A DNA stretch of 64,000 nucleotides from a virus. Shown one piece after another: positions 25,441 through 59,041 of this stretch (its first letter is position 1; each line of letters starts with the position of its first letter). Under the pieces are notes generated by a model. That model had not been told where the DNA came from, made no database searches, and saw only the letters and a program-made list of their open reading frames with translations. The stretch lies in the IMG/VR virus record IMGVR_UViG_3300017991_004311, positions 34,937 to 98,936 of that record. One strand, given 5' to 3'. Made by a program: the position numbers and the translations under genes.

Positions 25441-25968
25441 GTGACGACCGAGATTGGCAAGCTACTCAGGAACAAACGGGGCATACAGCTCGACGTGGGG
25501 TGTGGGAGGATCTCCCGGACGAACTTCGTCGGGATGGACAAGGACCCGGACGTCGGAGCCGATATCGTGCACGACATGGAAATGTTCCCGTATCCCCTCC
25601 CGGACGGATGCTGTCTGACGATCGTGGCGAGTCACATCATGGAGCATATCAAGCCGTGGCTCACCGTCGACGTGATGAACGAACTGTGGAGGATCGCGAA
25701 GCCGGAGGGGAGGCTGGCGATCTCGACCCCCTACGCGGGGAGCCACGGGTTCTGGCAGGACCCGACGCACTGCAACGGGTTCAACGAGTCGACCTTCACT
25801 TATTTCGACCCGAGCTTCCCGTTCTGGCAGGTTTACCGTCCCAAGCCGTGGAAGATACTGAAGGGCTTCCCCGTGTGGCACGTGAACGGGAACATCGAGG
25901 CGGTGCTGGAGAAGGTCGCGGGGGAAGTGGTGGAGGCAACGGTGGAGGTGTCGCATGCCGAACCCTGA
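25441..25968 (+). CDS. class I SAM-dependent methyltransferase
   Basis: LDVGCG, ASHIMEH, NELWRIAKPEG, WQDPTH. Confidence 0.85.
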   Translation: MTTEIGKLLRNKRGIQLDVGCGRISRTNFVGMDKDPDVGADIVHDMEMFPYPLPDGCCLTIVASHIMEHIKPWLTVDVMNELWRIAKPEGRLAISTPYAGSHGFWQDPTHCNGFNESTFTYFDPSFPFWQVYRPKPWKILKGFPVWHVNGNIEAVLEKVAGEVVEATVEVSHAEP

Positions 25969-26761
25969 TCCGATCCAGAGGCAGCAGGTAACGAAGCGGT
26001 TCATGGTCGCGACCCCGGTGACGGGACTGGTGAGGATAGAGTGGGTGCACGGGAGGTACCATCAGGTGATCCCGTGCAACTGGAGCCAGGTGGAGATGTA
26101 CGAGTTCGTGCGGACCGAGGCCCCCTACCGGTCTTTGGTGGCGGACGCGAGGAACATCGTCTGCCAGTCGTTCCTGGAGCAGGAGTTCGAGTGGCTGTTC
26201 TTCGTCGACCACGACGTGGTGCTCCACCCGACCACCATCGTGCAGTGGAACCGGAGGATGTTAGAGGGTGACATACCCGTATGGTGCGGGCTCTACTTCA
26301 CCAAGAGCCGGCCGTCGGAGCCGCTGGTCTACCGGGGCAGGGGCAACGGGTTCTACAACCGGTGGAAACTTGGGGACCTGGTGTGGGTCGACGGCATCCC
26401 GATGGGTTGTACGGTGATCCACCGGTCGATCATCAGGACCATGTACGATGAGAGCGAGGAGTACGAGGTGAAGCCGGGTATAAAGGTGCGCAGGGTGTTC
26501 ACCAGCCCGCGCGACGCGTGGTTCGACCCGGACACGAACACGTTCAACACCAGCGGGGGGACCGAGGACCTGTGGTGGTGCACCCGGGTGATGAGGGACG
26601 GCATCTTCAGGAAGGCCGGGTGGCCCCAGTACCAGCGCAGGAAGTACCCGTTCCTCATCGACACCAACGTGTTCTGCCGCCATATCGACTGGAGCGGGGT
26701 GCAGTACCCCGCGTTCGGGGAGGAGAAGGAGTTCACGCGCAGGGAGGCCACGCATGGATGA
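25955..26761 (+). CDS. GT-A glycosyltransferase
   Basis: DARN, WLFFVDHD (DxD), GMGCT-like, TEDLWWC. Confidence 0.8.
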   Translation: MPNPDPIQRQQVTKRFMVATPVTGLVRIEWVHGRYHQVIPCNWSQVEMYEFVRTEAPYRSLVADARNIVCQSFLEQEFEWLFFVDHDVVLHPTTIVQWNRRMLEGDIPVWCGLYFTKSRPSEPLVYRGRGNGFYNRWKLGDLVWVDGIPMGCTVIHRSIIRTMYDESEEYEVKPGIKVRRVFTSPRDAWFDPDTNTFNTSGGTEDLWWCTRVMRDGIFRKAGWPQYQRRKYPFLIDTNVFCRHIDWSGVQYPAFGEEKEFTRREATHG

Positions 26762-27107
26762 GAGGCTGAGGGCGATCCTGGCCCTCGCGTGCTTGAGGAG
26801 GGTCATGCGTTCGGGGATGCCTCCGCGCGGTCCCTCCGGGGGCGAGGTGCTCGATTTCGAGTACCATGTCCGGGTCAACGCCCGCAACCTCGCCGATATC
26901 GCCGCCCTTTCGGAGCGGAAGGCTAAGGAGGTGCTCGCGGACGTCCGGGAGCTCCTGGGGAAGGACACCCTGGAATGGTGGGGCCTGCCCCCGGTCTCCG
27001 ACAGCCAGGCCGTGGGTGAGCGGGTGAGGATGGGCCTCGGGGTCGCGCCCCTGGCCAGGGACGGGGTCGGCATACGCGAGCGGATAGCGGTTGCGATGAA
27101 GAACTGA
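26754..27107 (+). CDS. hypothetical protein
   Basis: GGAGG RBS, overlaps the upstream stop. Confidence 0.5.
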   Translation: MDERLRAILALACLRRVMRSGMPPRGPSGGEVLDFEYHVRVNARNLADIAALSERKAKEVLADVRELLGKDTLEWWGLPPVSDSQAVGERVRMGLGVAPLARDGVGIRERIAVAMKN

Positions 27108-27121
27108 GGGGCTGAGACGCC

Positions 27122-28714
27122 ATGAGCATCTCCGTATCGGAATCGGTAGTCCTGAAGCAGGGGCTTCCCGGTGTTTCGACCAGCGACGACTTGACCGTAG
27201 GGGAGTCCACCGTTGTCAGACTTGCTTCTCATGTCAACGTGTCCGATGGGGCTGCGGTAGGGGAGGCTGTCGTCAGCAGGCTTTTGCCCCCCGTGCCGGT
27301 GTCGGATGGGCTTACGATTGGCGAGGCGGTCGCAGCCGGTATCTCGGCGGGCAAGGGGAGCGCAAGCGACGGTTTGACCGTAGGTGAATCGGCGGTCCTG
27401 TCGCTCTCCACCATGGGGGCCGACGTCGACGACGGCTTGGCTGTCGGCGAATCCCTCTCCTCCACGCTCATTCCCCTCATTGAGGTCTCCGACGGCCTGA
27501 CTGCGGCGGAATCTGTTTCTGCTATTGCCAAGTTCAACGCTTCGGTTTCGGGCGGGGTAACCGTCGGAGAGTCCGTTGCCTTAGGGACGGGGGACCTTGT
27601 GGTCTCCATCTCCGATGGCCTCACGCTTGGCGAATCGGTCTCGTCGGTGGCGGGCGTCCCGGGGCAGAGCCTGTCGGACGGCCTTGCGTTGGGGGAGGCG
27701 GTCTCGACCGTCCTTATATCATTCATTGAAGTCTCCGACGGTCTCACCCTGGCGGAATCCCTTGTCTCCACGCTCGTTTCCCTGGTCTCGGTATCCGACG
27801 GTCTCACGCTCGGTGAGGCCGTGGACTCAGGAGTGTCGACGGCGGAGGTCGGCGTTTCCGATGGATTGACGATTGCGGATTCCCCGGCCGCGCAACTCGC
27901 CGGATTGATCTCCATCCCCACCTCCGACGGCCTGACCGTGGGCGAGGCGGCGGTGCTCGGCATGAACACCGCCGGGATCAGCGTTTCCGACGGTTTGGCA
28001 GTGGCGGATTCGTCGGTAGCGGATGTGCAGTCGGCTACTGTGAGAGTTGTCTCGGTCTCCGACGGCACCACTGTAGGGGAATCGATTGACCGGGGGGCGG
28101 GTGCGCTTGGGATTTCCGTCTCCGACAGTGTAGCGATGGGAGAATCCCTGAACCGCGGGACGGGTGCGCTTGGAATCAGTGTCTCCGACGGGATTGCGAT
28201 CGGGGAGTCGTCATCGGCCGATATTGCGGCACCGTCATCGCGTAGCGTGTCCATATCGGATGGCCTCACGCTCGGTGAGAGAGTGGGGGGGTGTCTCCAT
28301 GCGCTCACTGGTGTCTCGGACGGGCTTGCCCTGGGCGATACCGCATCCGCGTCCGTTGGGGCCGGGATCAGCGTTTCCGATACGGTCACCGTCAGCGAAA
28401 GCGTAGATGCCTATATCACCGCCTATTTCCTCGGGGTGTCGGACGCGCTCACGATCGGGGAGAGCGCGCTAGGGGCGCTGGGATATTACGAGGTCTCGGT
28501 CTCGGACGCGCTCACGATCGGCGAGTCGGCCAGCGGGCTGAGCTACATATTCGTCAGGGCGTACCTCTCCCTGCTGGAGGCGGAGGCGGGGATCTCCTTC
28601 TTGTCCGCCGCCGCGTCCCTGGAGAACAAGGGGGCTGAGGCGGAGACCGAACTCCTGACCGCGAGGGCGGCCACGGAGAACGAAGAGGCTGACGCGGAGG
28701 TCGAGTTCATTTGA
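27122..28714 (+). CDS. Ser/Thr-rich repetitive fibre-like virion protein
   Basis: >20 tandem ~19-21-aa units (I/V)SVSDGLT(V/L/I)GE(S/A). Confidence 0.75.
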   Translation: MSISVSESVVLKQGLPGVSTSDDLTVGESTVVRLASHVNVSDGAAVGEAVVSRLLPPVPVSDGLTIGEAVAAGISAGKGSASDGLTVGESAVLSLSTMGADVDDGLAVGESLSSTLIPLIEVSDGLTAAESVSAIAKFNASVSGGVTVGESVALGTGDLVVSISDGLTLGESVSSVAGVPGQSLSDGLALGEAVSTVLISFIEVSDGLTLAESLVSTLVSLVSVSDGLTLGEAVDSGVSTAEVGVSDGLTIADSPAAQLAGLISIPTSDGLTVGEAAVLGMNTAGISVSDGLAVADSSVADVQSATVRVVSVSDGTTVGESIDRGAGALGISVSDSVAMGESLNRGTGALGISVSDGIAIGESSSADIAAPSSRSVSISDGLTLGERVGGCLHALTGVSDGLALGDTASASVGAGISVSDTVTVSESVDAYITAYFLGVSDALTIGESALGALGYYEVSVSDALTIGESASGLSYIFVRAYLSLLEAEAGISFLSAAASLENKGAEAETELLTARAATENEEADAEVEFI

Positions 28715-29016
28715 GATCATTCGAGCGCGGTTCGACGATACGGTTCAAGGTGACGTTCGAGAACACATCGGGTACGGCGACGGACCCGATCGACAACAAG
28801 GCGTATTGCACGGTGGTTGACCCTTCGGGGACGAAACAGCTCGATTATCAGCTAGGGACGCGCAGCACGACGGGGGTCTACTACTACGATTACACCGTCA
28901 CCACCTCGAAATCGTTGGGGATATGGAAGGTCGAGTGGGAAGCGGCGGTCGGGACGCTCACCTCGATCGGGCGCGAGCAGTTCAGGGTCGTCCACACTGA
29001 ACCGGGGACGTCGTAG
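28711..29016 (+). CDS. small Ig-like virion protein
   Basis: GSTIRF.VTF...G.ATDP, TGVYYYDY, G.WK.EW. Confidence 0.6.
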   Translation: MRSFERGSTIRFKVTFENTSGTATDPIDNKAYCTVVDPSGTKQLDYQLGTRSTTGVYYYDYTVTTSKSLGIWKVEWEAAVGTLTSIGREQFRVVHTEPGTS

Positions 29017-29024
29017 GTGGCATC

Positions 29025-29480
29025 ATGAGCGAACTGTTCAACTGGGACCGGGCGGTCAGGATCGCCGACCCTGGTCCGATCATCCGGGCATTGGATAAGG
29101 TGGTCGAACGGTGCGCGGTGGAGGGCGCCGACTACGCTCGCGACCGCGACCGGTGCCCGGTGCTGACGGGGACGCTGCAGAAGTCCCTTGCGGCCAGGGA
29201 GCACTGGGAGCACCCGACCTACGAGGGCAGGGCGGTGCCTATAGTTTCGGGCGAGAAGCTCTCGTTCAGGCCCATGGAGCGGGCCATCGCCTCGGCGCTC
29301 CCCTACTGCAGGAGGCAGGAATACACGAATCCGAACGGCAAGGACCATTTCATCCACAAGGCGATCAAACACATGGAGCCGAAACTGAAGGCGATGACGG
29401 CGGCCACGCTTCGGGCGATATTCGACGAACAATGGCAAGGGGGTGTTTCGATCCATGACCTCGGAGACCTCGGAACCTGA
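29025..29480 (+). CDS. HK97 gp10-like tail completion/neck protein
   Basis: CPVLTGTLQKS, PY..RQEY, FI.KA. Confidence 0.7.
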   Translation: MSELFNWDRAVRIADPGPIIRALDKVVERCAVEGADYARDRDRCPVLTGTLQKSLAAREHWEHPTYEGRAVPIVSGEKLSFRPMERAIASALPYCRRQEYTNPNGKDHFIHKAIKHMEPKLKAMTAATLRAIFDEQWQGGVSIHDLGDLGT

Positions 29481-29761: not shown

Positions 29762-30784
29762 ATGAAGGTCCTCGTGACCGGGGGATGCGGGTTCATCGGG
29801 ACGAATTTCATCATGGCGCTGCTGGACGAGGAGCCGGGCTGCGAGGTGGTCAACCTCGACGCGCTCACCTATGCGGGCAACCCGCGGAACAGCGAGCGCA
29901 TCCGGGACGGGTACCCGCAGGCGCGGTACAGCCTGGTGGTGAGGGACATCTGCGAGCTTCCGGGCAAGGGGTTGGAACACGCCCCCTTCGGGAGCTCGCA
30001 GCCGTTTGATTGGGTGGTCAACTTCGCCGCCGAGAGCCACGTGGACCGGAGCGTGATGGGGAGCGACGCTTTCACCCGCTCGAACGTGGTGGGCGCGCAG
30101 CGGCTCATGGACTGGATGCTTTCCCTCCCGGGAGCCGAGCGCCCGAGGCTGCTTCAGGTGTCGACCGATGAGGTCTACGGCGACGTGGGCCTGGAGGCGT
30201 CCTTCGAGGAGGACCGCCTGCACCCGTCCTCGCCCTACTCGGCCTCGAAGGCGGCGGCCGACCTTCTCGTGATGGCGTACGGACGCACGTTCGGCCTGGA
30301 TTACATCATCACCCGCTCCTCCAACAACTTCGGCCCTTTTCAGCATCCGGAGAAGCTCATCCCGAAGGCGATCACCCGGATGGTGGAGGGGCGGACCGTC
30401 CCGGTCTACGGCGACGGGAGGCAGCGCCGGGACTGGATTCCGGTCTCGGAGAACGCGCGCGCGATCCTCCACCTCATGGACGTGGGCATCCCCGGGGAGG
30501 TCTACAACATCGGATCGGGGGAGACGACGGCCAACATCGACATCATCAGGTTCCTGGCCGACGAGGTGGGGGTGAACGTGAACAGGTGCACCGAGTTCAC
30601 GCGGGATCGCCCCGGGCACGACCGCCGCTATTGCCTGGACAACACGAAACTCCTGAGCACGGGCTTCGCGTTCGACTGGGATTTCAAGGTGAGCCTGCGG
30701 GAGACGGTCGGGTGGTACCGGGACAATCGGGACTGGTGGGAGCCGTTGGCAAATATCGACCGGGAGGAATGCTTCGATGGATGA
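29762..30784 (+). CDS. rmlB: dTDP-glucose 4,6-dehydratase
   Basis: GGCGFIG, DALTYAGN, FAAESHVDRS, STDEVYG, YSASKA, DRPGHD.RY. Confidence 0.95.
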   Translation: MKVLVTGGCGFIGTNFIMALLDEEPGCEVVNLDALTYAGNPRNSERIRDGYPQARYSLVVRDICELPGKGLEHAPFGSSQPFDWVVNFAAESHVDRSVMGSDAFTRSNVVGAQRLMDWMLSLPGAERPRLLQVSTDEVYGDVGLEASFEEDRLHPSSPYSASKAAADLLVMAYGRTFGLDYIITRSSNNFGPFQHPEKLIPKAITRMVEGRTVPVYGDGRQRRDWIPVSENARAILHLMDVGIPGEVYNIGSGETTANIDIIRFLADEVGVNVNRCTEFTRDRPGHDRRYCLDNTKLLSTGFAFDWDFKVSLRETVGWYRDNRDWWEPLANIDREECFDG

Positions 30785-31178
30785 ATGGGAACCGATACCG
30801 ATCAACAATAGGTCGGCGGAGAACCACGACGTCACCCTTTCGGTGACCCGCACCGGGAAGGTGACGCTGTACTTCACCCAAAGATTGCGTAAACGAAGAT
30901 ACAAGGGTCATGATGCCGCTCTTATGCAATGGTGCAAGCTGAGCCGCAGGGGGAAGCAGATCATGGCGCAATTCAGCACCAAGAAGCGGGATGAGTATTA
31001 TCGGAAGCTGTACGACAACGGAAGCGTGGTATGTCTTCGTTCCGCTGACCTTCCGGGAGGGTTCGTCCCCGGTCACCGGTACGGGCTCTGGGCACAATGC
31101 GACAACGGGCTGGTCGTCATGGATATGGGCGAGCCCGTCGATCTCGGGCCGATGAGGAGCTGGAGGCGATCGAAATGA
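30777..31178 (+). CDS. hypothetical protein
   Basis: GGAGG RBS; coupled to both neighbours. Confidence 0.55.
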   Translation: MDEWEPIPINNRSAENHDVTLSVTRTGKVTLYFTQRLRKRRYKGHDAALMQWCKLSRRGKQIMAQFSTKKRDEYYRKLYDNGSVVCLRSADLPGGFVPGHRYGLWAQCDNGLVVMDMGEPVDLGPMRSWRRSK

Positions 31179-31909
31179 AGGGAGTGCTGCTTGCGGGGGG
31201 CGTCGGCACCAGGCTCATGCCGTGCACGAGGGTGACGAACAAGCACTTGTTGCCGGTGTACGACCGGCCGATGGTCTACTACCCGGTCTCGACCCTGGTG
31301 GGCGCGGGCATTGCCGAAATCATGGTCATCACGGGCCGGGAGCACATGGGCGCGGTGATGGAGACGCTCGGGAGCGGACGGGAGTTCGGCGCCGAGTTCA
31401 CCTACCGCATCCAGGATCAGGCGGGCGGGATCGCGGAGGCGCTGCTGCTGGCCAGGGCGTTCGTGGACACGGACAACGTGGCCGTCATCCTGGGCGATAA
31501 TATCTTCGAGGACACGTTCGCCGAGGACGCGCGCGCGTTCGAGTTCGACGGGGCGGCGGGCCAGGCGAAAGTGTTCCTGAAGAAGGTTCCTGACCCCAGC
31601 CGCTTCGGGGTGGCGACGGTGCACGGGGACCAGGTGGTGGGGATAAAGGAGAAGCCGGCGCTCCCGGAGAGCGACCTGGCGATCACGGGCCTCTATTTCT
31701 ACGATTGCGGGGTGTTCGACACGCTCTCGTCCCAGACGTACTCCGAGCGGGGGGAGCTGGAGATAAGCGACACGAACAACGACTACCTCGCGCGCGGCCT
31801 GCTCACCTACCGGATACTTGATGGATTCTGGAGCGACGCGGGGACGTGGCCGTCGCTGATGCGCGCGGCGCGCCACTGCCAGGGGGGCAACCATGGCGAC
31901 GGTGAATAA
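31175..31909 (+). CDS. rmlA: glucose-1-phosphate thymidylyltransferase
   Basis: GVLLAGG.GTRL.P.T..TNKHLLPVYD.PM, LGDN, EKP, SERGELEISD, WSDAGT. Confidence 0.95.
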   Translation: MKGVLLAGGVGTRLMPCTRVTNKHLLPVYDRPMVYYPVSTLVGAGIAEIMVITGREHMGAVMETLGSGREFGAEFTYRIQDQAGGIAEALLLARAFVDTDNVAVILGDNIFEDTFAEDARAFEFDGAAGQAKVFLKKVPDPSRFGVATVHGDQVVGIKEKPALPESDLAITGLYFYDCGVFDTLSSQTYSERGELEISDTNNDYLARGLLTYRILDGFWSDAGTWPSLMRAARHCQGGNHGDGE

Positions 31910-32432
31910 CCTTTCGGAGGCCTTCTTCCAGAGTCTCGTCTATTTCCTGCGGCAGGCGGCGGGTCTGAACTCGGACTTCGCGGACCGGATGTGGTGGACC
32001 CATCCGGGATTCAACCTCTCGAACCAGACGCTGCCGTTCATCCTCGTGCGCCACTACCACACGGGCGACGAGTTCGCCTCCCAGCCCGACGTGACCGGGT
32101 ACGAGTCCAGGGACATCACCTTCTCCTTCGACATCATGGTCTACTGCCAGGACCATGCGCACCAGCAGCACCTTCCGCAGCTGGTCAAGCGCACAATCGA
32201 GTCGGCGACGGTGAGCGGGGAGAGCGGGATTCAGGTGTATTCCGGGTTCGACGCCAACGGCGATCCCGATGTCGGTTCGGAGCTGGACGTGGCCGAGCCG
32301 TTCCTGGGGGCCATCGTGCCGATCGGCTCCGAGGAGGAGGAGGACGTGCTCCACAAATTCGCGTCGTCGATCGAAGGCGAGTGGAGCGTGTTCCGGGACA
32401 AAACCAAGAAGTTCATCTCGACGAACACATAG
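31893..32432 (+). CDS. putative tail terminator-like protein
   Basis: Acidic, LPFILV, FSFDIMVY; inferred from fold pattern and gene order. Confidence 0.45.
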   Translation: MATVNNLSEAFFQSLVYFLRQAAGLNSDFADRMWWTHPGFNLSNQTLPFILVRHYHTGDEFASQPDVTGYESRDITFSFDIMVYCQDHAHQQHLPQLVKRTIESATVSGESGIQVYSGFDANGDPDVGSELDVAEPFLGAIVPIGSEEEEDVLHKFASSIEGEWSVFRDKTKKFISTNT

Positions 32433-32681: not shown

Positions 32682-33428
32682 ATGCCGGCATTCATACCCG
32701 GATCGGCGCAGCGGGCCAAGCGGCCGAGGGACGTGGGCAGGTGGTGTGACGCTGACTATTTCGACGGGCTCGCCGATCCGCGCGGATACTCCGACCTCCG
32801 CTACGACCACCGCAAGGGCTACGGGCTCACCTTCTGGAGCGACGGCTTCCTCGGGACCGCGCGCACCCTCGCCAAGCGCTACTCGCCCCTGGGTACGTTC
32901 CTGGAGCTCGGTTGCGCCAAGGGGTTCCTGGTGCAGGCCCTGCGCATGGTCGGCGTCGAGGCGTACGGCGTCGACATCAGCGGGTACGCGCTCTCCTGTT
33001 CCCACCCCGACATCTGCCAATTCCTCCACCGGCAGTCGGCGGCGGACCTTTCCAATCTTCCTGATTCCTATTTCGATCTTGTGTGGAGCTGGGATTTCAT
33101 GGAGCACCTAGACGAGGCCGAGATCGTGGCCTGCCTGGGGGAGAGCCTGCGCGTGGGGAGGCGGCGCGTGGTCCACAACCTCACCGTCTTCGACCGGGAA
33201 TACGGGAGCATCGCCCAGGCGTTCCCGGACGAACCTCAGGACCCCACGCACGTCTCCTGCCACACGAAGGGATGGTGGGCGAAGTTGGTTCGGGAGTTCG
33301 TCCCGGCGGAGAGGATACGGGCGATCGAGTACATCGGGGAGCCGTTTCGGGAGGACGCGCCGCGGAGGGCGATGCTCACGGTCGACCTGTGGGCGGGGGA
33401 GTTCATCGGGGAGGATGCGGATGCGTAA
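32682..33428 (+). CDS. class I SAM-dependent methyltransferase
   Basis: LELGCAKGF, GVDIS, DFMEHL, DPTH. Confidence 0.85.
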   Translation: MPAFIPGSAQRAKRPRDVGRWCDADYFDGLADPRGYSDLRYDHRKGYGLTFWSDGFLGTARTLAKRYSPLGTFLELGCAKGFLVQALRMVGVEAYGVDISGYALSCSHPDICQFLHRQSAADLSNLPDSYFDLVWSWDFMEHLDEAEIVACLGESLRVGRRRVVHNLTVFDREYGSIAQAFPDEPQDPTHVSCHTKGWWAKLVREFVPAERIRAIEYIGEPFREDAPRRAMLTVDLWAGEFIGEDADA

Positions 33429-38122: not shown

Positions 38123-38123
38123 C

Positions 38124-47894: not shown

Positions 47895-47909
47895 CACCAG
47901 GGGGTGAAC

Positions 47910-51515: not shown

Positions 51516-52047
51516 GGCGGTGTTCCTGGACCGGGACGGGGTCATCTGCCCGGTGCGCGGGGCGAAGTTCCAGGACAGGCCGCAACCCGACAAGTACCTC
51601 CTGGACCCGGACGACTTCGAGCTGCTCCCCGGGGTCGCGGACGCGATGCGCGCGCTCAAGCGGGAGGGGTACCTCGTCATCGTGGTCACGAACCAGCTGG
51701 CCCCGTACCTCGGCATCGCCACCAGGGAACAGGTGGACGCGGTGAACCGCCACATGGTCACGGAGCTGGCGAAACGGGGGGCCACGATCGACGACGTGTT
51801 CTGCTGCTGCGACCTCAGCCACCGGAGGAAGCCGAGCCCGGGCATGCTGGTGGAGGCGATGGTGAAATGGGATATCGACCCGGCGCGGTCCTACGTGGTC
51901 GGGGACTCGACATGGGACCTGCAGGCGGCGGAGGCGGTCGGACTCTGCCCCGTCCTGGTCACCAGTCCGCTCAGTCCGCTCGTGGCAGAGAGCCTGCATA
52001 GGGTGGCACCCCGGCTGCTCCGGGGGGAACGGCCTCCGGTGTACTGA
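51502..52047 (+). CDS. gmhB: heptose 1,7-bisphosphate phosphatase (HAD)
   Basis: FLDRDGVI, VTNQ, RKP.PGM, VGD...D. Confidence 0.9.
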   Translation: MPNNKAVFLDRDGVICPVRGAKFQDRPQPDKYLLDPDDFELLPGVADAMRALKREGYLVIVVTNQLAPYLGIATREQVDAVNRHMVTELAKRGATIDDVFCCCDLSHRRKPSPGMLVEAMVKWDIDPARSYVVGDSTWDLQAAEAVGLCPVLVTSPLSPLVAESLHRVAPRLLRGERPPVY

Positions 52048-52254: not shown

Positions 52255-52286
52255 GGCAAAAAATTCATTTACGATTGGAGGACCGG

Positions 52287-53339
52287 ATGAAGATTCTCAT
52301 CACGGGGGGGTGCGGCTTCGTGGGGAGCAACGTGGCACGCTACGCATTGGGGCGCGGCCACGAGGTGGTGGCGTTTGACAACCTCGTGCGGATCGGCTCC
52401 AGGAGCAACCTTGACGAGTTCAAGGCTGAAAATAATTTTCTCTTTATTGAAGGGGACGTGCGGGAACAGGCGGACTTCGAGGCTGCCCCTGAAGTCGATG
52501 CGGTGATCCACACCGCGGCGCAACCGGGCGTCCCGACATCGATGAGGAATCCGCGCTATGATTTCGAGGTGAATGCGCTCGGCACGTTCAATGTGCTGGA
52601 ATTCGCGCGGGAGCGGGGACTGTTGCCGTTGATATTTACGAGTACCAACAAGTGCTATTCCTGCGAAGTCAACGAGATCGGGGTGGAGATGGCCCAAAAC
52701 GGGCGAGTTTTCACCGGGGAGTACCGTGGGGGCATCCCCGAGGGGTTCCCCGTGGATTCGGCCGGGAAAGCGGCATATTCCCCCTACGGGTGCAGCAAGT
52801 ACACCGGTGATCGCTACTGCCAGGAATACTGGCACACCTACGAGGTGCCGACGGTCGTGAACCGGATGAGCTGCATCGCCGGCGAACGCCAGATGGGCGT
52901 GGAGGAGCAGGGATGGGTCGCGTGGTTCGCCTACGCCAAGATGTTCCACATCAACCTGAACATCTTCGGCGACGGGAAACAGACCCGCGACGTGCTCTAC
53001 GTGGGCGACCTGGCGAGGCTGTTCCTGGAGGAGTTGGAGCACATCGACCGGCACCGGGGGCAGGTCTACAACGTCGGCGGGGGTCCGGACAAGATGATAA
53101 GCCTCCAGGGCGTCATCGACCACCTGGTGGACCTGGAGGGATCGCTCTTTGACATCACGTACCACGAATGGCGGCAGGCGGACCATCTCGCCTACTACAC
53201 GGACATCACGAAAGTGAGCGAGTTCTGGCAACCGGAGATAGGCCCGATCGAGACGGTCGACCGCATCTGGGATTGGGCGGGGAGGAACCGTTCGCGCATC
53301 TGGAGAATGCTGAAGAAGACGCTGGGAGAAGGCGCATGA
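52287..53339 (+). CDS. NAD-dependent epimerase, CDP-paratose/tyvelose 2-epimerase-like
   Basis: GGCGFVG, AAQP....S..NPR.DF..NA.GT.N.LE, STNK.Y, YGCSK, RMSCI.G..Q.G.EEQGWVAWF. Confidence 0.85.
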   Translation: MKILITGGCGFVGSNVARYALGRGHEVVAFDNLVRIGSRSNLDEFKAENNFLFIEGDVREQADFEAAPEVDAVIHTAAQPGVPTSMRNPRYDFEVNALGTFNVLEFARERGLLPLIFTSTNKCYSCEVNEIGVEMAQNGRVFTGEYRGGIPEGFPVDSAGKAAYSPYGCSKYTGDRYCQEYWHTYEVPTVVNRMSCIAGERQMGVEEQGWVAWFAYAKMFHINLNIFGDGKQTRDVLYVGDLARLFLEELEHIDRHRGQVYNVGGGPDKMISLQGVIDHLVDLEGSLFDITYHEWRQADHLAYYTDITKVSEFWQPEIGPIETVDRIWDWAGRNRSRIWRMLKKTLGEGA

Positions 53340-54223
53340 ACGAGACCGTGTTGCGTGTAGTCGGCCCCAACGGCAAACCCGGGGGGGAGGGGCTGTCCCT
53401 GGCATGGTACGAGCGCCCCGACGTGCAGGTGGTCCGGGATATCGGCACGCGCTGCTTCCCGCTCTCATCGGGCACGATGGACGAAGTGGTCCTCGATAAC
53501 GCGATCGACTACTTGGACGACTGGCCGCACCTTCTCAACGAATGCCACCGCGTGCTCAAACCGGAAGGGAAGGTGTCGGTGCGGGGATCGCTCGACACGG
53601 CGCTGTTCTCGGCGATGGCGAGGGCGACCGGGATGGAAAAGGCCGCACTCGGCCTGCGCTGCGCGTTCGAGGAGACGAACGAATGGGGACTCGCCCTGCG
53701 GTCCGAAAGCGAGCGCTCCGGTGGAGCCCGCCCGCTCCTGACGAGACCGGGTATCGCGCTCCACAACGGGCACCCGAGCTGCGTCCGGGTGGAGCTGGGA
53801 TGCGGGTCGAGGAAGCGCGGCGTCCCGGGACCGTTCATCGGCGTCGACCGCCATGAATATCCCGGGGTCGACGAGGTGGCCGACATCGAGCGGGGGCTCC
53901 CGTTCCATGACGGTTCGGTCGATTTCGTCTTCGCCTCGCACCTGATGGAGCATATCGGCGACCTCATCTTCGCGATGGAGGAGATATGGCGGGTGCTGCG
54001 GAACCGAGGGATTTTTGAAATGATTAATCCTTGGTGGAATTCTATGTATGCTTTTGTAAACCCTGATCATAAACGCGTTTTACACAACGATTTGTGGAGT
54101 TATTGGTCAAGTCAAGGAAATATAATGGACAAAGAAGCATACGGAATAAAAGCTCGCTTCGATGTTGTAAGCAATTCGCATATGGGAGATGGAAATTTTG
54201 TTACTTTAGAAGCAGAAAAATAA
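53336..54223 (+). CDS. tandem SAM methyltransferase domains
   Basis: NECHRVLKPEG, then ELGCG, ASHLMEH, EEIWRVL, NPDH; last ~200 nt AT-rich. Confidence 0.8.
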   Translation: MNETVLRVVGPNGKPGGEGLSLAWYERPDVQVVRDIGTRCFPLSSGTMDEVVLDNAIDYLDDWPHLLNECHRVLKPEGKVSVRGSLDTALFSAMARATGMEKAALGLRCAFEETNEWGLALRSESERSGGARPLLTRPGIALHNGHPSCVRVELGCGSRKRGVPGPFIGVDRHEYPGVDEVADIERGLPFHDGSVDFVFASHLMEHIGDLIFAMEEIWRVLRNRGIFEMINPWWNSMYAFVNPDHKRVLHNDLWSYWSSQGNIMDKEAYGIKARFDVVSNSHMGDGNFVTLEAEK

Positions 54224-54242: not shown

Positions 54243-54998
54243 TTGACTTTCTCTGGAGAAAAAAATCCATTTTTTGGGCACAAACACACAGAAGAACAAA
54301 AGAAGCGGTGGAGTATAATGCGAACTGGAGTTAAACTTTCAGAGCAAACAAGAAAAAATATGAGTAAAGCTCAACAAGCACGGAAAAAGAAATTTGGTTA
54401 TATGCATTCAAAGGAGACTAGGAAGAAAATAAGCGAAGCACTTAAGGGGAAACGCTATAAGAGAAAACCTTTTTCAGAAGAACACAAACAAAGAATGAGC
54501 GAAGCGAAAAAGGGAATTCGTAATCCCATGTTTGGTAACTCCCATTCTGAAGAGGCAAGAAAAAAGATAAGGGAAGCTACAAAAGGCAAGAACAATCCAT
54601 TTTTTGGAAAGCGCCATAATATATTAACAAGAAAGAAAATGAGTCTCTCTGCTAAGGGAAAGCATGCCAATGAAAAAAATCCTAATTGGCACGGGGGAAT
54701 TACTCCGTTATATGGGAAAATAAGGGGAAACGACGAATATGATCAGTGGAGGAAAAAAGTCTTTACAAGAGACGGTTTTACTTGTCAACAATGTGGCAGT
54801 TCTAAGAGCGGCAGCCTTAATGCTCACCATATTAAACCTTTTTCTGAAATTATCACGTCCAATAAGATAACCACTTGTCAGCAAGCGATTGCCTGTAAAG
54901 AGCTTTGGAATATTGATAATGGAATAACTTTGTGTAAAACTTGTCACTTGAAAACGTACAGAACTATCACAGCGGGGAGGGACTGTTTACGACGATGA
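54243..54998 (+). CDS. NUMOD3-HNH homing endonuclease
   Basis: Repeated NPFFGK.H(S/T)EE motifs; RDGFTCQQC, AHHIKP, NGITLC..CH; strongly AT-rich. Confidence 0.9.
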   Translation: MTFSGEKNPFFGHKHTEEQKKRWSIMRTGVKLSEQTRKNMSKAQQARKKKFGYMHSKETRKKISEALKGKRYKRKPFSEEHKQRMSEAKKGIRNPMFGNSHSEEARKKIREATKGKNNPFFGKRHNILTRKKMSLSAKGKHANEKNPNWHGGITPLYGKIRGNDEYDQWRKKVFTRDGFTCQQCGSSKSGSLNAHHIKPFSEIITSNKITTCQQAIACKELWNIDNGITLCKTCHLKTYRTITAGRDCLRR

Positions 54999-55008: not shown

Positions 55009-55638
55009 ATGACACTCAAAGATATGCCCGACATCGGGCTGACAGAAGAGGCGTTACGGAGAATACATGCGGCTGCGCTCCTGACCGAACTCGACATCTA
55101 CCATTTGTTCCAGTTCGCCCGCGAGATCCCCGAGGGCGGGACCTACCTTGAGCTAGGGGCCTATGCCGGGGGAGCGGTCATGTGCGTCGGGGAGGCGGCG
55201 AGGGCGGTGGAACGGCACGTCACCCTGATCGCGGTTGACCTGAACTTCGGCCTCGGATTCAGCGGCAATACTGGCGGCCTCCCGGTGAGAGTGATAGAGG
55301 GGAGGATCGGCGACAGGGACACGGTCAACAGGATCGACGGCGTTTCGGTTGACCTCATCTTCAACGATGCGGACCAACCGTACGGCGATCTGTGCCGTGA
55401 CATCGCTCTCTATTGGGGCAAGCTGAAGCCGGGAGGGGTGCTGCTCGGACATGATTATTGGAACGGGACCGACCGTGGGTTCATGGACACGAAGCGGGCG
55501 GTCGACGATGTGTTCGGGGAGCTGGCGACGGTGATGGAGGGGAACACCACGATGTGGATGGTGGGGAAGACGGACGAGACCGACACCATTGTCAGGAAAC
55601 TGGCGAAGGAGATCGAGGGGGAGCGGCGTGCAGAATAA
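55009..55638 (+). CDS. class I SAM methyltransferase (Methyltransf_24-like)
   Basis: LELGAYAG, DLIF.DA, KLKPGG.L.GHDY. Confidence 0.85.
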   Translation: MTLKDMPDIGLTEEALRRIHAAALLTELDIYHLFQFAREIPEGGTYLELGAYAGGAVMCVGEAARAVERHVTLIAVDLNFGLGFSGNTGGLPVRVIEGRIGDRDTVNRIDGVSVDLIFNDADQPYGDLCRDIALYWGKLKPGGVLLGHDYWNGTDRGFMDTKRAVDDVFGELATVMEGNTTMWMVGKTDETDTIVRKLAKEIEGERRAE

Positions 55639-56392
55639 GTTCCTGAGCGACACGGAGGAGCGCATCCCCTACCTGAGCGTGGGGGACTGTCCCCTGGCTT
55701 CGTTGGTGGTCCTGAGCTTCAACCGGCCGCAGTTCCTCCACCAGACCATTGCGAGCCTGAAACGGAACACGGAATATCCGCACGAGCTCATCGTGGTGGA
55801 TGATGGCTCCATGGACCCGGCGAACGTCGAGTTCCTGATGCGTCTGTATGGAGCAAAAGAGCTGAGCACGCTCGTCCTGAACGCGGGCAGGAACCAGGGC
55901 GTGGGCGCGAGCATCAACCGGGGATTCCACGCGGCCCACGGCAAGTGGCTCTTCAAGCTGGACTCGGACCTGGAGTACAGGCCGCAGTGGTTGGAGAAGG
56001 CAGTCGCGATCCTGGAGACCTTCCCGGAGATCGGGGTGCTGGGCCTGTTCCGCTACTGGCACGACCCGTGCGACTGGCGGAAGATGCTCATACGGCGCGA
56101 GGAGCGCGACGGGCTGGTGGTCCAGGTCGCGGAGGACCAGGTGGGTTCGACGATGGCGATGAGCCGGGAAACGTACGAGTCCCACGGTGACTTCATTGAG
56201 GGCTCCTATGCCTTCGGCGCCGACTACGAATACAAGATGGCGCTGAAGCGCGGGGGGCGTTGGATCGCCCTGCCCGACGAGGACCTGGTGGAGAACTTCG
56301 GCTTCGGGCTGACGACCACCTCGCTCCGGTGGAAGGGGGAGCCGGTCACGGTGTCGAAGGTGCCGCTCATATTCGGGAAGGGGATATCATGA
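55628..56392 (+). CDS. GT2 glycosyltransferase
   Basis: VVLSFNR, VDDGS, NQG....NRG, KLDSD. Confidence 0.88.
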   Translation: MQNKFLSDTEERIPYLSVGDCPLASLVVLSFNRPQFLHQTIASLKRNTEYPHELIVVDDGSMDPANVEFLMRLYGAKELSTLVLNAGRNQGVGASINRGFHAAHGKWLFKLDSDLEYRPQWLEKAVAILETFPEIGVLGLFRYWHDPCDWRKMLIRREERDGLVVQVAEDQVGSTMAMSRETYESHGDFIEGSYAFGADYEYKMALKRGGRWIALPDEDLVENFGFGLTTTSLRWKGEPVTVSKVPLIFGKGIS

Positions 56393-57048
56393 ACGTGCTC
56401 GACGAGGAACTGAGGACCTGGAAGATAGAGGACGAGGCGGGGCGCTGGGAGAAGCTGGAGCGCGAACGGGTGCGCTATCCCCGCATGCTCCGGGAGATGG
56501 GCGTGCCGCTCCTGCGCCTGGACAACAAGTCGGTCCTGGACGTGGGCTGCGGCCCGGTATCGGCGCTGGAGTTCCTGTCCCGCGCGGGGAGGAGGGCGGC
56601 GACCGACCCGCTGGCCGGGGAATACGCGGAGATATACCCGGAGCGCGACTCGTGCATCGAGTGGTACGACTGCCCGGCCGAGAAGCTGGAATTCGGCGAC
56701 GGCGAGTTCGACCTGGTCCTGTGCATGAACGCGCTGGACCACGTGGCGGAGCCCGTCACCGCGCTCGTCGAGATGAAGCGCGTGCTCAGGCCCGGGGGCT
56801 TCCTGGCGGTGCACTGCTGCGAGGACAACGCGAGGATCAACCCGCACCCGGCGCACCGGCACAACCTCACCCTGGGATGGCTCAAGGGGCTGGTGGACGA
56901 TAGCTTCGAGACCGTGGTGGAGCGCAGGGTCAGGTACGGGTGGGTCAAATGGCGCGGCAAGGTCGGCCAGCCTGCGTTCGCATGGTTGGGGAGGCTGACG
57001 ACGGGATACAAGGCATTGCCCGATAGTACGCAGGAAGGGAACGGATGA
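56389..57048 (+). CDS. class I SAM methyltransferase (type 11)
   Basis: VLDVGCG, AE.L.F.DG.FD.V...NALDH, EMKRVLRPGG. Confidence 0.88.
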   Translation: MNVLDEELRTWKIEDEAGRWEKLERERVRYPRMLREMGVPLLRLDNKSVLDVGCGPVSALEFLSRAGRRAATDPLAGEYAEIYPERDSCIEWYDCPAEKLEFGDGEFDLVLCMNALDHVAEPVTALVEMKRVLRPGGFLAVHCCEDNARINPHPAHRHNLTLGWLKGLVDDSFETVVERRVRYGWVKWRGKVGQPAFAWLGRLTTGYKALPDSTQEGNG

Positions 57049-57863
57049 TGAAAGGCACGATGTCGATCACATGCGCCGAATGCGGGAAATTCTTCCGGGT
57101 CGCACCTTGGGAATTGAGGATAGGGAAGAAATACTGTTCTCTTAAATGTAGGTCGGCCGCAAGAGGAAGATGGCCCGAAGAAGAGTTGGTTATTCTCAGG
57201 GAACATTTCCCGCACGCTTCCAAGAAAGAGATGATGGCGCTACTCCCGCATCGGACCTATGATCGGATTCAGAAAAACGCGAAGGCGATGGGGCTGGAAA
57301 AGACGTGGGAAGCGAAACACAAATCACTTTCTGATAGACTGGTATGGAACAAGGGGAAAGGTGGATACCATGTGAGTCCGGCGAAGCCCGATGACGCGAG
57401 ACGTTATCATGTCCCTTGGAATAAGGGCAAGACGAAGGAGACGGATAAGAGAATAAAGGCAGTAGCGAAAGCTAGAGAAGGGGGAAGGAATCCAGTTCAT
57501 AAACCTGGGGTGAAAGAAAAGATATCTAAATCGCTTATGGGAAGATACGGAGGAGAGAAAAACCCGGCATATATAGACGGGAGAAACTCGATTCCGTACA
57601 CCCCGGAATTCAGGAAGGTACGGGATAGGATAAGAGCGCGCGACGGGTATAAGTGTCAGCTGTGTGGAGTTCCTGAGCGGGAATGTAAGCGGAAGCTTGA
57701 CGTGCACCATATCGACGACGATAAGTCGAACAATGCCATGGGCAATCTCGTGAGTCTATGTATGATGTGTCATTTGCACACGAGATATGATCGTGAGTTC
57801 TATCGGATGGTATTGACATCAATGATGCGTGAAAAGGAGAAAGTGAGTGGACCAAAACGCTAA
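57045..57863 (+). CDS. HNH homing endonuclease
   Basis: CAECGK..KYCS..C, PWNKG repeats, RDGYKCQLCG, VHHID..K.NN...NL..LC..CH. Confidence 0.88.
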   Translation: MMKGTMSITCAECGKFFRVAPWELRIGKKYCSLKCRSAARGRWPEEELVILREHFPHASKKEMMALLPHRTYDRIQKNAKAMGLEKTWEAKHKSLSDRLVWNKGKGGYHVSPAKPDDARRYHVPWNKGKTKETDKRIKAVAKAREGGRNPVHKPGVKEKISKSLMGRYGGEKNPAYIDGRNSIPYTPEFRKVRDRIRARDGYKCQLCGVPERECKRKLDVHHIDDDKSNNAMGNLVSLCMMCHLHTRYDREFYRMVLTSMMREKEKVSGPKR

Positions 57864-57900
57864 CAGAGGAGGTGCAGCGGCCAGGAGCGAGAAGGGTTCA

Positions 57901-59041
57901 ATGCGAATCTTACTCGTTTCACCTGGCCACTGAGCCCGGGATATCAACTGTCGATGTATATCACGGCCTCGGCAACGCCCTGGCCAAGAAGCTCGGTCAG
58001 GCCAATGTGTTGCCGTTCGACCTGAAACCGATTCTTAAATTCTACCGGACGGCGGTCAAGAAGATGATCGAGGGGACGGCGAAGCGGGTGGACATCAACG
58101 ACGTCTACAACAGCGCCTGCAAATCGCTCATCGTGAACGTGCTGCAGACCATGCCCGACCTCATCATCTACATCACGGGCCAGTACATACCGCAGTGGGT
58201 CCCGGCGATGATCCGCGACCGCCTCCACATCAAGCAGGCGGTCTGGTTCACCGAGAGCCCCTACCAGGTGGCCCTGGAGGCGAGGATGGCGCCGCTGTTC
58301 GATTACGTGTTCACCTGCGACAAAGCATGTGAGAGGATCTACCGGGGATTCAACCCGAACACATGGTACCTGCCGACCGCCTACGATTCCCTTTATGAGT
58401 GGGAAGTGACGGACGAACTCAAGCGGTGGGAGAGGATCATCTACACGCCCGACCTCTTCTTCGTCGGCTCCGAGGTTCCGGGGAGGCTCGACTTCCTGCG
58501 GGAATTGGTGAGCCACCTGAAGGGGCAACGGCTGCGGTTCCGCATGTTCGGCGTGTTCCCGAGTATCGAGGAGGGCAAGTGCCCGGAACTGGAGCCGTTC
58601 TACACGCCGAGGGTGCTGACGAAGTTCGATGTCATCAAGTACTACCGGTGGGCGAAGATCGTCCTGAACCATTTCAGGATCAATGAGAGCAAGAGTTTCT
58701 ACCGTGACGCGAAGACGGGGCAAGTGGTTCGCGACCCGGAGGGTAAGGTGATGGTGAGGACCATCGAGCCCTACTCGCTGAGTCCGAGGGTGTATGAGGC
58801 GCTGGCGGCGGGCGGGTTCCTGCTGACGCAGAAGAGGACCGAGATCGGCGACCTCTTCGTGCCGGGGCAGGACCTGGTGACGTACGATGACGCCGCCGAC
58901 TGCGCGAGGATGGTACGGGAGTGGCTCCCGAAGGAGAACGAGCGGCGGGAGATCGCCGACTCCGGGAGGCACAAGGTCGAGCAGGGCCATGACTACCTTG
59001 ACAGGGCGGCCCGGCTGCTCGACGCGATTCACTTCATGTAG
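57901..59041 (+). CDS. GT-B glycosyltransferase (CgeB/DUF3880-like) with a +1 frameshift near the start
   Basis: ATG 57901 gives MRILLVSPGH then TGA; body continues in the +1 frame (STVDVYHGL, TESPY, AKIVLN, PRVYE.LA.G.F.L, H.Y..RA). Confidence 0.75.

Follow-up and report, generated by a model that had tools for sequence, protein, structure and literature searches.

A phage-encoded 33-kb sugar gene block between the neck and tail-tube genes of an uncultured tailed phage: possible glycosylation of virion proteins

The window, a stretch of 64,000 nucleotides from the 99-kb genome (62% GC) of an uncultured tailed phage of marine or sediment origin, was shown to contain a block of sugar genes at 25.4–59.0 kb that is flanked by neck and tail-tube genes. 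The approximately 38 sugar genes and two homing endonucleases make up about one third of the genome. A sequence-only reading had proposed such a block of about 33 kb among the virion genes, and this observation was confirmed, nearly all gene classes named being found where they had been placed (Table 1). The accompanying interpretation was partly supported: the best reading, and on balance a probable one, is that virion proteins receive a complex methylated sugar in the cytoplasm.

Table 1. Features of the sugar gene block and adjoining virion genes (window positions; all on the + strand). GT, glycosyltransferase; MTase, methyltransferase.
Feature	Position	Evidence and conservation
SAM MTase 1, window-specific fibre module	25426..25968	Pfam Methyltransf_11/23, weak; relatives: weak paralogue matches elsewhere
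GT-A-like GT (Anp1-like, weak)	25955..26761	PF03452 E 6e-6, just under cut-off; no match in PDB sequence search
Repeat fibre, 530 aa, candidate glycan acceptor	27122..28714	about 19-21 'VSDGLTxGES' units; 23% Ser+Thr
Ig-like (MG2-like) small protein	28711..29016	PF01835 3e-5; phrog_18294
Neck/tail-completion-type connector	29025..29480	phrog_5 E 1e-4, weak; 40-45% conserved, directly 5' of rmlB in all relatives
RmlB, dTDP-glucose 4,6-dehydratase	29762..30784	TIGR01181, 353 bits, 1e-105; relatives 48% identical, same position
RmlA, glucose-1-phosphate thymidylyltransferase	31175..31909	TIGR01207, 223 bits, 3e-66; relatives 58-65% identical
Tail terminator	31893..32432	AF2 model (pLDDT 58) matches T5 p142, Chi neck, DT57C, lambda gpU; relatives 53-57% identical
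SAM MTase 2	32682..33428	Methyltransf_11 2e-9; kept in L008 and G002
GT2-radical SAM fusion	33415..35082	PF00535 + PF04055; relatives 59-62% identical, full length
GT2-a	35162..36073	PF00535; relatives 60% identical
Maf-fold (DUF115/GT42-like) transferase 1	36070..36870	AF2 pLDDT 82; Z 11.7 to Maf 5mu5, 10.7 to Cst-I/CstII
CUT1 sugar-binding protein, signal peptide	36857..38122	SBP_bac_8; PDB sugar SBPs
ABC-importer permeases (two)	38124..38987, 38987..39799	BPD_transp_1 in both; 5-6 TM each
NeuA-family (CMP-ulosonate) cytidylyltransferase	39796..40599	profile of 32 homologues vs CMP-Neu5Ac synthetase PDB 6ifd 1.7e-49
Maf-fold transferase 2, paralogue of 36070	40596..41522	33% identical to 36070; GxGPS, GCEH motifs in both
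Ugd-like short nucleotide-sugar dehydrogenase, 278 aa	42125..42961	TIGR03026 6e-49, profile positions 62-297 of 413 only
UXS, UDP-glucuronate decarboxylase	43343..44290	PDB 4gll/2b69 about 1e-83; next family 6e-30
GT2-b, GT2-c, GT2-d, tandem	44266..45108, 45105..45896, 45875..46720	PF00535; relatives 54-60% identical, same order
HTH + metallophosphoesterase protein, window-specific	46728..47894	MarR_2/HTH_11 + Metallophos
Sugar-1-P nucleotidyltransferase, MurU/ManC/HddC-like	47904..48596	relatives 45% identical
HddA, GHMP kinase	48590..49552	best family, 149 bits; relatives 57% identical
RmlD reductase, window-specific	49542..50450	TIGR01214, 276 bits, above cut-off
'RmlC', dTDP-sugar-isomerase-type cupin only, window-specific	50428..50958	PDB 3ejk 3e-15, RmlC about 5e-4
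GmhA-like SIS isomerase	50955..51515	frame plot; TIGR00441 9e-15, weak, 55 bits; SIS_2
GmhB-type HAD phosphatase	51502..52047	frame plot; PRK08942 8.5e-33
CDP-tyvelose-2-epimerase-like SDR	52275..53339	PDB 9rl0 7e-68, 1orr 1e-54; relatives 63% identical
SAM MTase 3	53336..54223	Methyltransf_11 4e-19
HNH-NUMOD3 homing endonuclease, selfish insert	54243..54998	GC3 0.45
MTase 4	55009..55638	Pfam
GT2-e	55628..56392	relatives 75% identical
MTase 5	56389..57048	relatives 59% identical
HNH endonuclease	57045..57863	relative G003 has one at same site
Glyco_trans_1_2 (CgeB-type) GT, directly 5' of tail tube	57872..59041	PF13524 5e-24; relatives 60% identical
Tail tube	59060..59452	phrog_1407; relatives 70% identical, followed by chaperone and tape measure genes
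Tail assembly chaperone	59508..59906	phrog_344 1e-22
Tape measure protein, runs across contig end	60115 onward (to 63999)	tape measure PHROGs 1e-81

Genes in the block were called by Pfam, NCBIfam and PDB sequence searches, and several enzyme assignments score below curated cut-offs. The block genes, all on the + strand, are tightly coupled throughout; nine overlaps are of the ATGA type, and structural genes stand immediately next to rmlB, rmlA and the last GT, in agreement with the co-orientation and coupling described earlier. The sugar genes were also found to split structural genes as proposed, namely the weakly assigned neck gene, a gene with a tail-terminator fold and the tail-tube gene. 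Missing from the earlier gene list were the ABC importer, two HNH endonucleases, the HTH-metallophosphoesterase protein and the repeat fibre; the latter has repeats with diverged DNA copies and adjoins a GT/MTase pair.

The activated-sugar enzymes encoded are those for a dTDP-6-deoxyhexose (rhamnose type), an NDP-heptose-type sugar with SDR tailoring, UDP-xylose and, from an imported precursor, a CMP-ulosonic acid. From the rmlABCD set claimed earlier, rmlA, rmlB and rmlD were recovered, the rmlC candidate being an RmlC-like cupin of the dTDP-sugar-isomerase type only. HddA and GmhB stood, GmhA was matched only weakly, and the supposed HddC was nearer to MurU and ManC. UXS and the tyvelose-epimerase-like gene were recovered, and the Ugd-like protein was short and lacked the C-terminal domain. 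In the sugar list proposed, rhamnose is plausible, as is xylose even though Ugd is truncated, and the heptose corresponds to HddA/GmhB-type matches plus a MurU-like nucleotidyltransferase. Transfer and tailoring would be carried out by eight soluble GTs, two Maf-fold transferases, five MTases and a radical SAM domain fused to a GT2, and the GT, MTase and radical SAM counts equal those given before.

Both Maf-like genes were upheld, one by its structural model and the other as its paralogue, and so was the NeuA-like gene, for which PF02348 was matched by 30 of the 32 homologues. No NeuB homologue is encoded in the genome, and a search of the whole genome found no ABC_tran ATPase as partner of the sugar importer. 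Thus, the term self-sufficient does not hold for the nonulosonate branch, because the phage cannot make the nonulosonate and must import a substrate with the help of a host ATPase.

The block was shown to be phage-encoded and non-chimeric. A 113-bp terminal overlap makes the contig self-closing, and its IMG/VR entry lists direct terminal repeats. The RSCU correlation of each sub-module with the head and replication genes was 0.89–0.98, and the block junctions were bridged by identical unitigs in four independent metagenome runs from three other studies. Together with synteny in relatives, these results contradict the chimera with a host locus that had been named as a possible objection.

The comparison with related viral contigs showed that a core is kept inside the neck-to-tail-tube interval. 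G002 and G003 (36% GC) belong to the lineage of the window phage (capsid 67% identical; about 20 sugar-block genes in the same order and position) and have, from tail terminator to tail tube, a core of about 17 kb with unchanged gene order. In these two and in L003 and L008 the order is neck–rmlB–rmlA–terminator–MTase–GT2-radical SAM–four GT2, then nucleotidyltransferase–HddA–SDR–GmhA–GmhB–SDR, and finally MTase–GT2–MTase–GT–tail tube, the shared core genes showing 45–75% identity to those of the window phage. Compared to this core, the window block is an expanded 33-kb form with about 16 kb added: the fibre module (23.4–29.0 kb), a Maf/ABC/NeuA/Ugd/UXS block (36.1–44.3 kb), RmlD and the cupin, the HTH-phosphoesterase, one extra MTase and one HNH gene.

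In the best explanation, on balance a probable one, the block is a late-operon glycosylation system owned by the phage. A methylated hetero-oligosaccharide would be built in the cytoplasm directly onto virion proteins during particle assembly. The conserved core may serve a putative acceptor common to the lineage, and the window-specific additions may serve the Ser/Thr-rich repeat fibre. Within the Maf/NeuA/ABC cassette, a host ATPase would drive import of a sugar acid, which would then be activated with CTP and transferred as a cap. If so, the glycan coat would mask or stabilise the virion, or alter what it adheres to.

Glycosylation of virion proteins is supported by phage ownership, core conservation and coupling to virion genes, and by the lack in this genome of a lipid-carrier route and of a known entry enzyme for DNA glycosylation. 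Besides, the NeuA-family gene adjoins a Maf-like gene, a GT/MTase pair neighbours the Ser/Thr-rich fibre, and in structure the modelled Maf-like protein matches best to Maf, a flagellin glycosyltransferase, which suggests a protein acceptor, although the Maf fold is also found in MptE and thiamine pyrophosphokinases. Against it, no enrichment of a glycan-acceptor motif was seen in proteins of the head, neck, tube or distal tail, capsid and tube proteins lack Ser/Thr-rich C-terminal tails, and relatives that retain the 17-kb core lack the fibre. The incomplete Ugd and the enzyme scores under curated cut-offs also count against it.

Searches by family and a TM scan of the whole genome revealed no undecaprenyl-phosphate priming transferase, flippase, polymerase or ligase, as the sequence-only reading had stated; Bac_transf and Glycos_transf_4 are absent from the genome, and apart from the two importer permeases, a single 4-TM protein is its only polytopic membrane protein. 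This does not by itself imply a protein target, because a lipid-linked primer of the host could also be elongated by soluble GTs. In such a reading, the soluble GTs and MTases of the phage would lengthen or cap a host acceptor, either lipid-linked or lipid A-core, on the inner side of the membrane, with display by host exporters (Wzm/Wzt, MsbA, Wzx), and so block superinfection or keep progeny from sticking to debris. ABC-exported O-polysaccharides typically bear methyl caps, the importer is a membrane-active module in the block, and host flippase and priming enzymes could be used although the phage encodes none. In marine T4-like phages, many GT and sugar-nucleotide genes beside tail-fibre genes are usually read in this way (PMC7029224). 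However, such remodelling of the host envelope is rather unlikely here, as the phage encodes neither a membrane-anchored GT nor a priming enzyme, exporter or ligase, a surface change by genes of the late neck-to-tail operon would gain little, the phage is apparently lytic (no integrase among the scanned genes), and an order kept across hosts as far apart as 36% and 62% GC is hard to square with host-specific envelope acceptors.

A soluble or lipid-linked glycoconjugate unrelated to the virion (glycolipid, glycosylated small molecule or peptide) is improbable. The GT2-radical SAM fusion and the MTases could act as natural-product-type tailoring enzymes, since the GT part matches best to the mycofactocin GT MftF and the radical SAM part to SPASM-type maturases, and the lack of acceptor-motif enrichment in virion proteins fits as well; yet the block has no visible peptide precursor, lipid or polyketide genes, and its terminator-to-tube position is conserved in relatives.

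Sugars on a modified base of the phage DNA, evading restriction as in T4, 5hmC-glycan phages and arabinosyl-5-hydroxycytosine phages, are highly improbable. The phage encodes a C5 cytosine methylase (window 310–1350), L008 has DNA methylases just 3' of its rml/terminator/MTase genes, and the block's nucleotidyltransferase is MurU-like, as in phage DNA arabinosylation, which is fed by an isomerase, kinase, HAD phosphatase and MurU-like nucleotidyltransferase (PMC13326640). But the genome encodes no TET/JBP (Tet_JBP) or thymidylate-synthase (Thymidylat_synt) homologue to put a hydroxyl on the base, the kinase is of GHMP/HddA and not RB69/DLP3 type, the block lies among tail genes away from replication genes, and 8–10 transferases with five O-MTase-type enzymes are more than is seen for any DNA glycan in the cited literature. 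Lastly, although the contig was assembled from a metagenome and CheckV gives its completeness as 67%, an assembly chimera, or a host polysaccharide locus captured recently and without phage function, is almost certainly not the explanation, given the terminal overlap, uniform codon usage, matching independent runs and synteny in relatives of very different GC.

Glycosylation of virion proteins by phage enzymes has precedents. The mycobacteriophages Che8, Corndog and Myrna are reported to have likewise soluble phage GTs and an O-methyltransferase in the virion operon (for Corndog, GT and MTase genes within the structural operon; PMC4351075) and no lipid-carrier machinery; capsid and tail proteins are the proposed acceptors, and mycobacteriophage virions reportedly carry glycans on the capsid and the tail tube (Freeman 2023, cited in PMC12619734). 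Those systems comprise 2–4 GT/MTase genes using host sugar donors, whereas the putative system of the window phage has about 38 sugar genes (besides the two homing endonucleases) and includes nucleotide-sugar pathways of its own, the radical SAM fusion, transferases of Maf fold and the importer; its capsid and tube proteins have no Ser/Thr-rich C-terminal tails. Of the earlier claim of a system more elaborate than typical ones, it is borne out that the block is far larger than these actinophage systems. Giant viruses (chlorovirus capsid glycans, Megavirinae fibril clusters) similarly combine viral nucleotide-sugar pathways, GTs and methyltransferases that reportedly work on virion proteins in the cytoplasm, independent of host lipid-carrier routes (PMC9614988, PMC10117803); they differ in eukaryotic hosts, genomes above 300 kb and no sequence relationship to the window genes, which lie inside a siphovirus tail-assembly operon. 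Pelagimyophages and cyanomyophages are also uncultured marine phages with many GT and sugar-nucleotide genes beside virion genes, but their regions are hypervariable, belong to T4-like myoviruses, accompany tail-fibre genes and are read as host O-chain modification (PMC7029224), while the core order of the window block is kept across distant siphovirus relatives.

In Maf-dependent flagellin glycosylation (Campylobacter, Aeromonas, Magnetospirillum; PDB 5mu5), a Maf-fold transferase also adjoins a CMP-ulosonate synthetase, and the acceptor is likewise probably Ser/Thr-rich. In contrast, the window phage has an ATPase-less ABC importer instead of a NeuB/PseI-type synthase or upstream pathway, its Maf-like proteins are single-domain with 266–308 aa, where Maf has 632 aa, and their acceptor would be something other than a flagellin. 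The Maf/NeuA/ABC-importer cassette was also found in two unrelated viral contigs, one of which is a phage by its terminase gene.

The window was found to form the last 64 kb of a 98,936-bp single viral contig for which direct terminal repeats are listed in IMG/VR and whose ends overlap by 113 bp in direct orientation, which closes the contig on itself. It has a GC content of ~62%, carries nearly all genes on the + strand and, as judged by PHROG and Pfam scans, is a long-tailed phage. Among 50,697 records of cultured phages no match was found at the nucleotide or protein level (portal and capsid queries). Relatives were found in IMG/VR by capsid alignment. Pattern scans with single proteins (terminator; SBP) gave no matches, and a metagenome scan for relatives returned the related contig L003 again and nothing more.

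Positions of structural genes, add-ons and selected elements in the window
Feature	Position	Basis or remark
Portal	5460	PHROG/Pfam scans
Head morphogenesis	6904	PHROG/Pfam scans
TROVE/Ro60-like protein	14300-15793	PF05731, phrog_850
Prohead protease	16263	PHROG/Pfam scans
Scaffold/decoration	19034	PHROG/Pfam scans
Capsid	19539	homologues carry PF25209/PF05065
Add-on: fibre module	23.4-29.0 kb	
Neck	29025	matches neck/tail-completion PHROG 5
Terminator	31893	predicted fold matches T5 p142, Chi and lambda gpU terminators (moderate model confidence)
Add-on: Maf1 - SBP - permease - permease - NeuA - Maf2 - small ORF - Ugd - TM protein - UXS	36.1-44.3 kb	
Further add-ons: HTH-phosphoesterase; RmlD and cupin; extra MTase; an HNH		
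HNH genes	54243-54998; 57045-57863	
Tail tube	59060	
Tail assembly chaperone	59508	PHROG/Pfam scans
Tape measure	from 60115, crossing contig end	PHROG/Pfam scans
43-nt palindromic elements	15886; 16040; 35084; 52056; 52210	intergenic

Two 56-kb relatives of 36% GC showed the same gene order from neck to tube, with 45-75% identity. This order runs neck, small TM protein, RmlB, RmlA, terminator, (methyltransferase, MTase), a fusion of a GT2 glycosyltransferase (GT) with radical SAM, four GT2, nucleotidyltransferase and HddA, continues with SDR, GmhA, GmhB, SDR, tyvelose-epimerase-like SDR, MTase, GT2, MTase and GT, and ends in tube, chaperone and tape measure; a third relative showed neck - RmlB - RmlA - terminator - MTase. 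The comparison with these relatives thus identifies a core of ~17 kb and ~20 genes as an old, vertically kept part of the virion operon of this lineage, beyond which the window carries ~16 kb of add-ons. In this expanded form the island spans 33 kb, contains ~38 sugar genes and two homing endonucleases, and takes up one third of the genome. Module order varies within the lineage, since the related contig L008 (1-4553; from relative G001) has, after its rml/terminator/MTase genes, no GT block but DNA methylases (N6_N4, MT-A70) together with an RNA ligase and a UDG-PolA exonuclease fusion. The capsid-to-neck interval of L003 (12818-17200) and of the 36% GC relative G003 (reverse complement, 8900-10282) was seen to encode several proteins whose N-termini resemble signal peptides, among them one of 541 aa that is beta-helix-like and one with an Lcl_C domain. 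Such proteins are unusual for virion modules, and the window contains no counterpart of them.

The coupling of sugar genes to structural genes proposed from the sequence alone was borne out. The neck, terminator and tube calls were all upheld, and ATGA-type overlaps were found at nine gene junctions. The rmlB gene starts 1 nt past the stop of the preceding gene, rmlA and the terminator gene overlap by 17 nt, and 18 nt separate the end of the last GT gene from the tube gene.

Gene calls were fixed by a GC3 frame plot, and identities were assigned by Pfam, NCBIfam and PDB sequence searches. Almost all sugar genes named in the sequence-only reading were present, and its approximate counts of eight GTs, two Maf-like proteins, five MTases and a radical SAM protein became eight GTs (one of them the radical SAM fusion), two Maf-fold proteins and five MTases. 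Within the proposed rmlABCD set, A, B and D stood as best families (RmlD above the curated cut-off; RmlB with 353 bits, below the cut-off of 365; RmlA with 223 bits, below 361), but the presumed C is a cupin of dTDP-sugar-isomerase type (3ejk, 3e-15) and no clear RmlC was found; of the Rml enzymes, the relatives retain RmlA and RmlB only. The gmhA/hddA/gmhB/hddC series was retained for the GHMP kinase, for which HddA is the best family (149 bits against a cut-off of 600), and for a GmhB-type HAD-IIIA phosphatase above its domain cut-off; the GmhA-like SIS isomerase, read in a frame different from the longest ORF, matched weakly (55 bits), and the supposed HddC is nearer to MurU/ManC. The same four-step logic of isomerase, kinase, HAD phosphatase and nucleotidyltransferase also serves other sugars in phages (PMC13326640). 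From the ugd and uxs pair, UXS was confirmed (PDB match ~1e-83), but Ugd is short, with 278 aa and no C-terminal domain. A frameshifted full-length ugd-like gene was considered and rejected, the downstream ORF encoding a small TM/coiled-coil protein and not the absent domain. The tyvelose-epimerase-like gene is a CDP-tyvelose-2-epimerase-like SDR (PDB 7e-68).

The NeuA-like protein alone scored barely above the PF02348 cut-off (24.7 bits); a profile of 32 homologues, 30 of which carry PF02348, matched CMP-Neu5Ac synthetases over their full length (PDB 6ifd, 1.7e-49; 1eyr, 3e-34), in agreement with the earlier call. The Maf-like call was likewise backed by a modelled structure (pLDDT 82) of predicted Maf/GT42-type fold, with the catalytic domain of a Maf flagellin glycosyltransferase (5mu5) as the best VIA match (Z 11.7, rmsd 3.8, 187 aligned), followed by the Cst-I/CstII sialyltransferases (Z ~10.7); beyond this fold group Z was below 4. 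Distant homologues carry PF01973. PDB sequence searches gave no matches for the Maf-like and Anp1-like proteins, and the Maf profile yielded an insignificant MptE match only. Because the fold is common to MptE/TPK kinases, the Maf-like proteins are putative transferases. The earlier list lacked two permeases and a CUT1-type binding protein, the latter with a signal peptide, as well as a pair of HNH endonucleases, an HTH-metallophosphoesterase and a 530-aa fibre of ~19-21 'VSDGLTxGES' units (23% Ser+Thr) whose gene (27122-28714) has no tandem repeats at the DNA level.

Maf-like genes were found in 23 other viral contigs, and two unrelated contigs carried the same Maf/NeuA/importer cassette as the window (36070-41522). 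One of these (L030, 42% GC) encodes Maf, a NeuA-like protein, the binding protein and two permeases, with transporter parts 41-55% identical, and has a large terminase gene 1.2 kb downstream, which marks it as a genuine phage. The other (L031, 35% GC) has three tandem Maf genes, a NeuA-like gene and a binding protein gene reaching the contig end. The CUT1 importer set of the window is incomplete, consisting of the binding protein and two permeases without an ATPase. Neither an ABC_tran match above cut-off nor a NeuB/PseI/LegI-type synthase (PF03102) was found in this genome, L030 or L031, and the importer would therefore need a host ATPase. From its gene content in these three genomes, the cassette looks like a mobile unit for import, CMP-activation and transfer that depends on the host ATPase.

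Regarding the target of the glycan, virion proteins are the acceptor that we consider probable, if by no means assured. A search of the whole 98.9-kb genome gave no match at E <= 1 to an initiating phosphoglycosyl transferase (Bac_transf, WecA/MraY type), while positive controls were detected, and a hydrophobicity scan of all GC3-supported ORFs revealed no flippase or exporter, polymerase or ligase, in line with what the sequence-only reading had stated. Polytopic membrane proteins were limited to the two importer permeases (BPD_transp_1) and, outside the island, one 4-TM protein of 131 aa. Eight GT and two Maf-fold genes are thus encoded without lipid-carrier or export genes. Together with the absence of DNA-modifying entry enzymes (see below), this favours a cytoplasmic, non-DNA acceptor. 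The late position in the neck-to-tail operon, its retention in widely differing hosts, the Maf fold, the adjoining Ser/Thr-rich fibre and the actinophage precedent (Corndog; PMC4351075) point to virion proteins, for the glycosylation of which a further precedent is reported (Freeman 2023, as cited in PMC12619734). Against such a target count the lack of enrichment of Ser/Thr motifs (SG, TG, VSG, SDG, C-terminal GS) in head, neck, tube and distal-tail proteins, the fibre excepted, the absence of Ser/Thr-rich C-terminal tails from capsid and tube, and the absence of a similar fibre from the head-neck interval of relatives that keep the core.

Remodelling of the host envelope appears unlikely. 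Soluble GTs could elongate lipid-linked primers of the host, the usual assumption for the GT clusters of marine myophages (PMC7029224), but the genome encodes neither a priming enzyme nor polytopic proteins beyond those named, and retention of the core in relatives at 36-62% GC suggests that its function is linked to the particle or life cycle of the phage rather than to the envelope of one host. Another glycoconjugate as the product is quite improbable. Glycosylation of DNA is more improbable still, as the genome showed no match at E <= 1 to a ThyA homologue (PF00303) or a TET/JBP dioxygenase (PF12851). Enzymes of these two kinds, the thymidylate-synthase homologue and the TET/JBP dioxygenase, open the DNA-glycosylation routes described in PMC13326640 and, reportedly, in a preprint by Pyle et al.

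A chimeric assembly or captured host locus is hardly credible given the codon usage, the bridged junctions and, decisively, the synteny in the 36% GC relatives; the island belongs to the phage. Codon usage of the core, each add-on and the fibre module correlated at 0.89-0.98 with that of head and replication genes, and foreign composition was confined to the two HNH genes that break into the island (GC3 0.45 against ~0.86 for the phage). For the second of these, G003 carries a counterpart of 54% identity at that site, but G002, the other 36% GC relative, does not, which fits homing elements. Near-identical sequence was present in five runs from four studies (sediment 2018, seawater 2021), none of which was listed as RNA. 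Error-free unitigs from four runs, excluding the possible source run of the assembly, bridged fibre - neck - rmlB, rmlB - rmlA - terminator - MTase, Maf - SBP, permease - NeuA, Maf2 - ugd and uxs - GT2; short 'joints' in rmlB (29.8-30.6 kb) were left out because they come from the rmlB of other organisms at 90% likeness. All four independent runs showed two extra G after 43275, which may represent a 2-nt deletion in the window assembly or a population variant and which alter only the C-terminus of the TM/coiled-coil ORF at 42951-43295, upstream of uxs. In each of the four runs, a contig of low depth connected position 35658 in GT2-a with 44529 in GT2-b, its paralogue, via 18 other letters. This junction would take out exactly the Maf/ABC/NeuA/Ugd/UXS add-on; it may stem from a variant or relative that lacks the add-on and occurs alongside, or from a mapping artefact between the two paralogues.

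Glycosylation of virions by phage GTs is already known. What is new is the conservation of the core across 36-62% GC, seen by sequence comparison, the expanded 33-kb form, the backing of the Maf and NeuA calls at fold and profile level, and the finding that the importer cassette without an ATPase recurs in viral contigs unrelated to the window, of which one is a confirmed phage. As a tentative joint reading, the particle may bear a giant-virus-scale, multi-sugar, O-methylated glycan, with an imported sugar acid capping a mucin-like fibre. The phage lineage would make the donors for the particle glycan itself, and this member would in addition take in a sugar acid from the environment by hijacking the ABC ATPase of the host, CMP-activate it and cap it onto the fibre with Maf-type enzymes. 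Such 'scavenge and display' glycosylation, if true, would be a phage-encoded route without described counterpart in viruses, and the cassette would represent a rare virus-encoded nutrient uptake feeding a modification pathway. Should the virion carry the product, no other tailed phage would have a glycosylation system nearly as elaborate; complete cytoplasmic protein-glycosylation factories would then occur in phages too and not in giant viruses alone, which would matter for the stability and adsorption of phages, for their immune recognition in therapy and for how 'LPS-like AMGs' in viromes are read. The GT2-radical SAM fusion, the compact Maf-fold transferases and the methyltransferases are candidates for glycoengineering.

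Elsewhere the genome encodes DnaB, primase, RecA, SbcCD, ParB, a C5 DNA methylase and a TROVE/Ro protein, the last located among the head genes. A DNA polymerase III alpha with a C-terminal uracil-DNA-glycosylase-superfamily domain was found at genome positions 24874-28257 (L002 6874-10257). The palindromic elements have DnaA-box-like arms, TTATCCACA; they are absent from the gaps 32432-32682 and 41827-42125, and within the island they lie at 35.1 kb and 52.1-52.2 kb.
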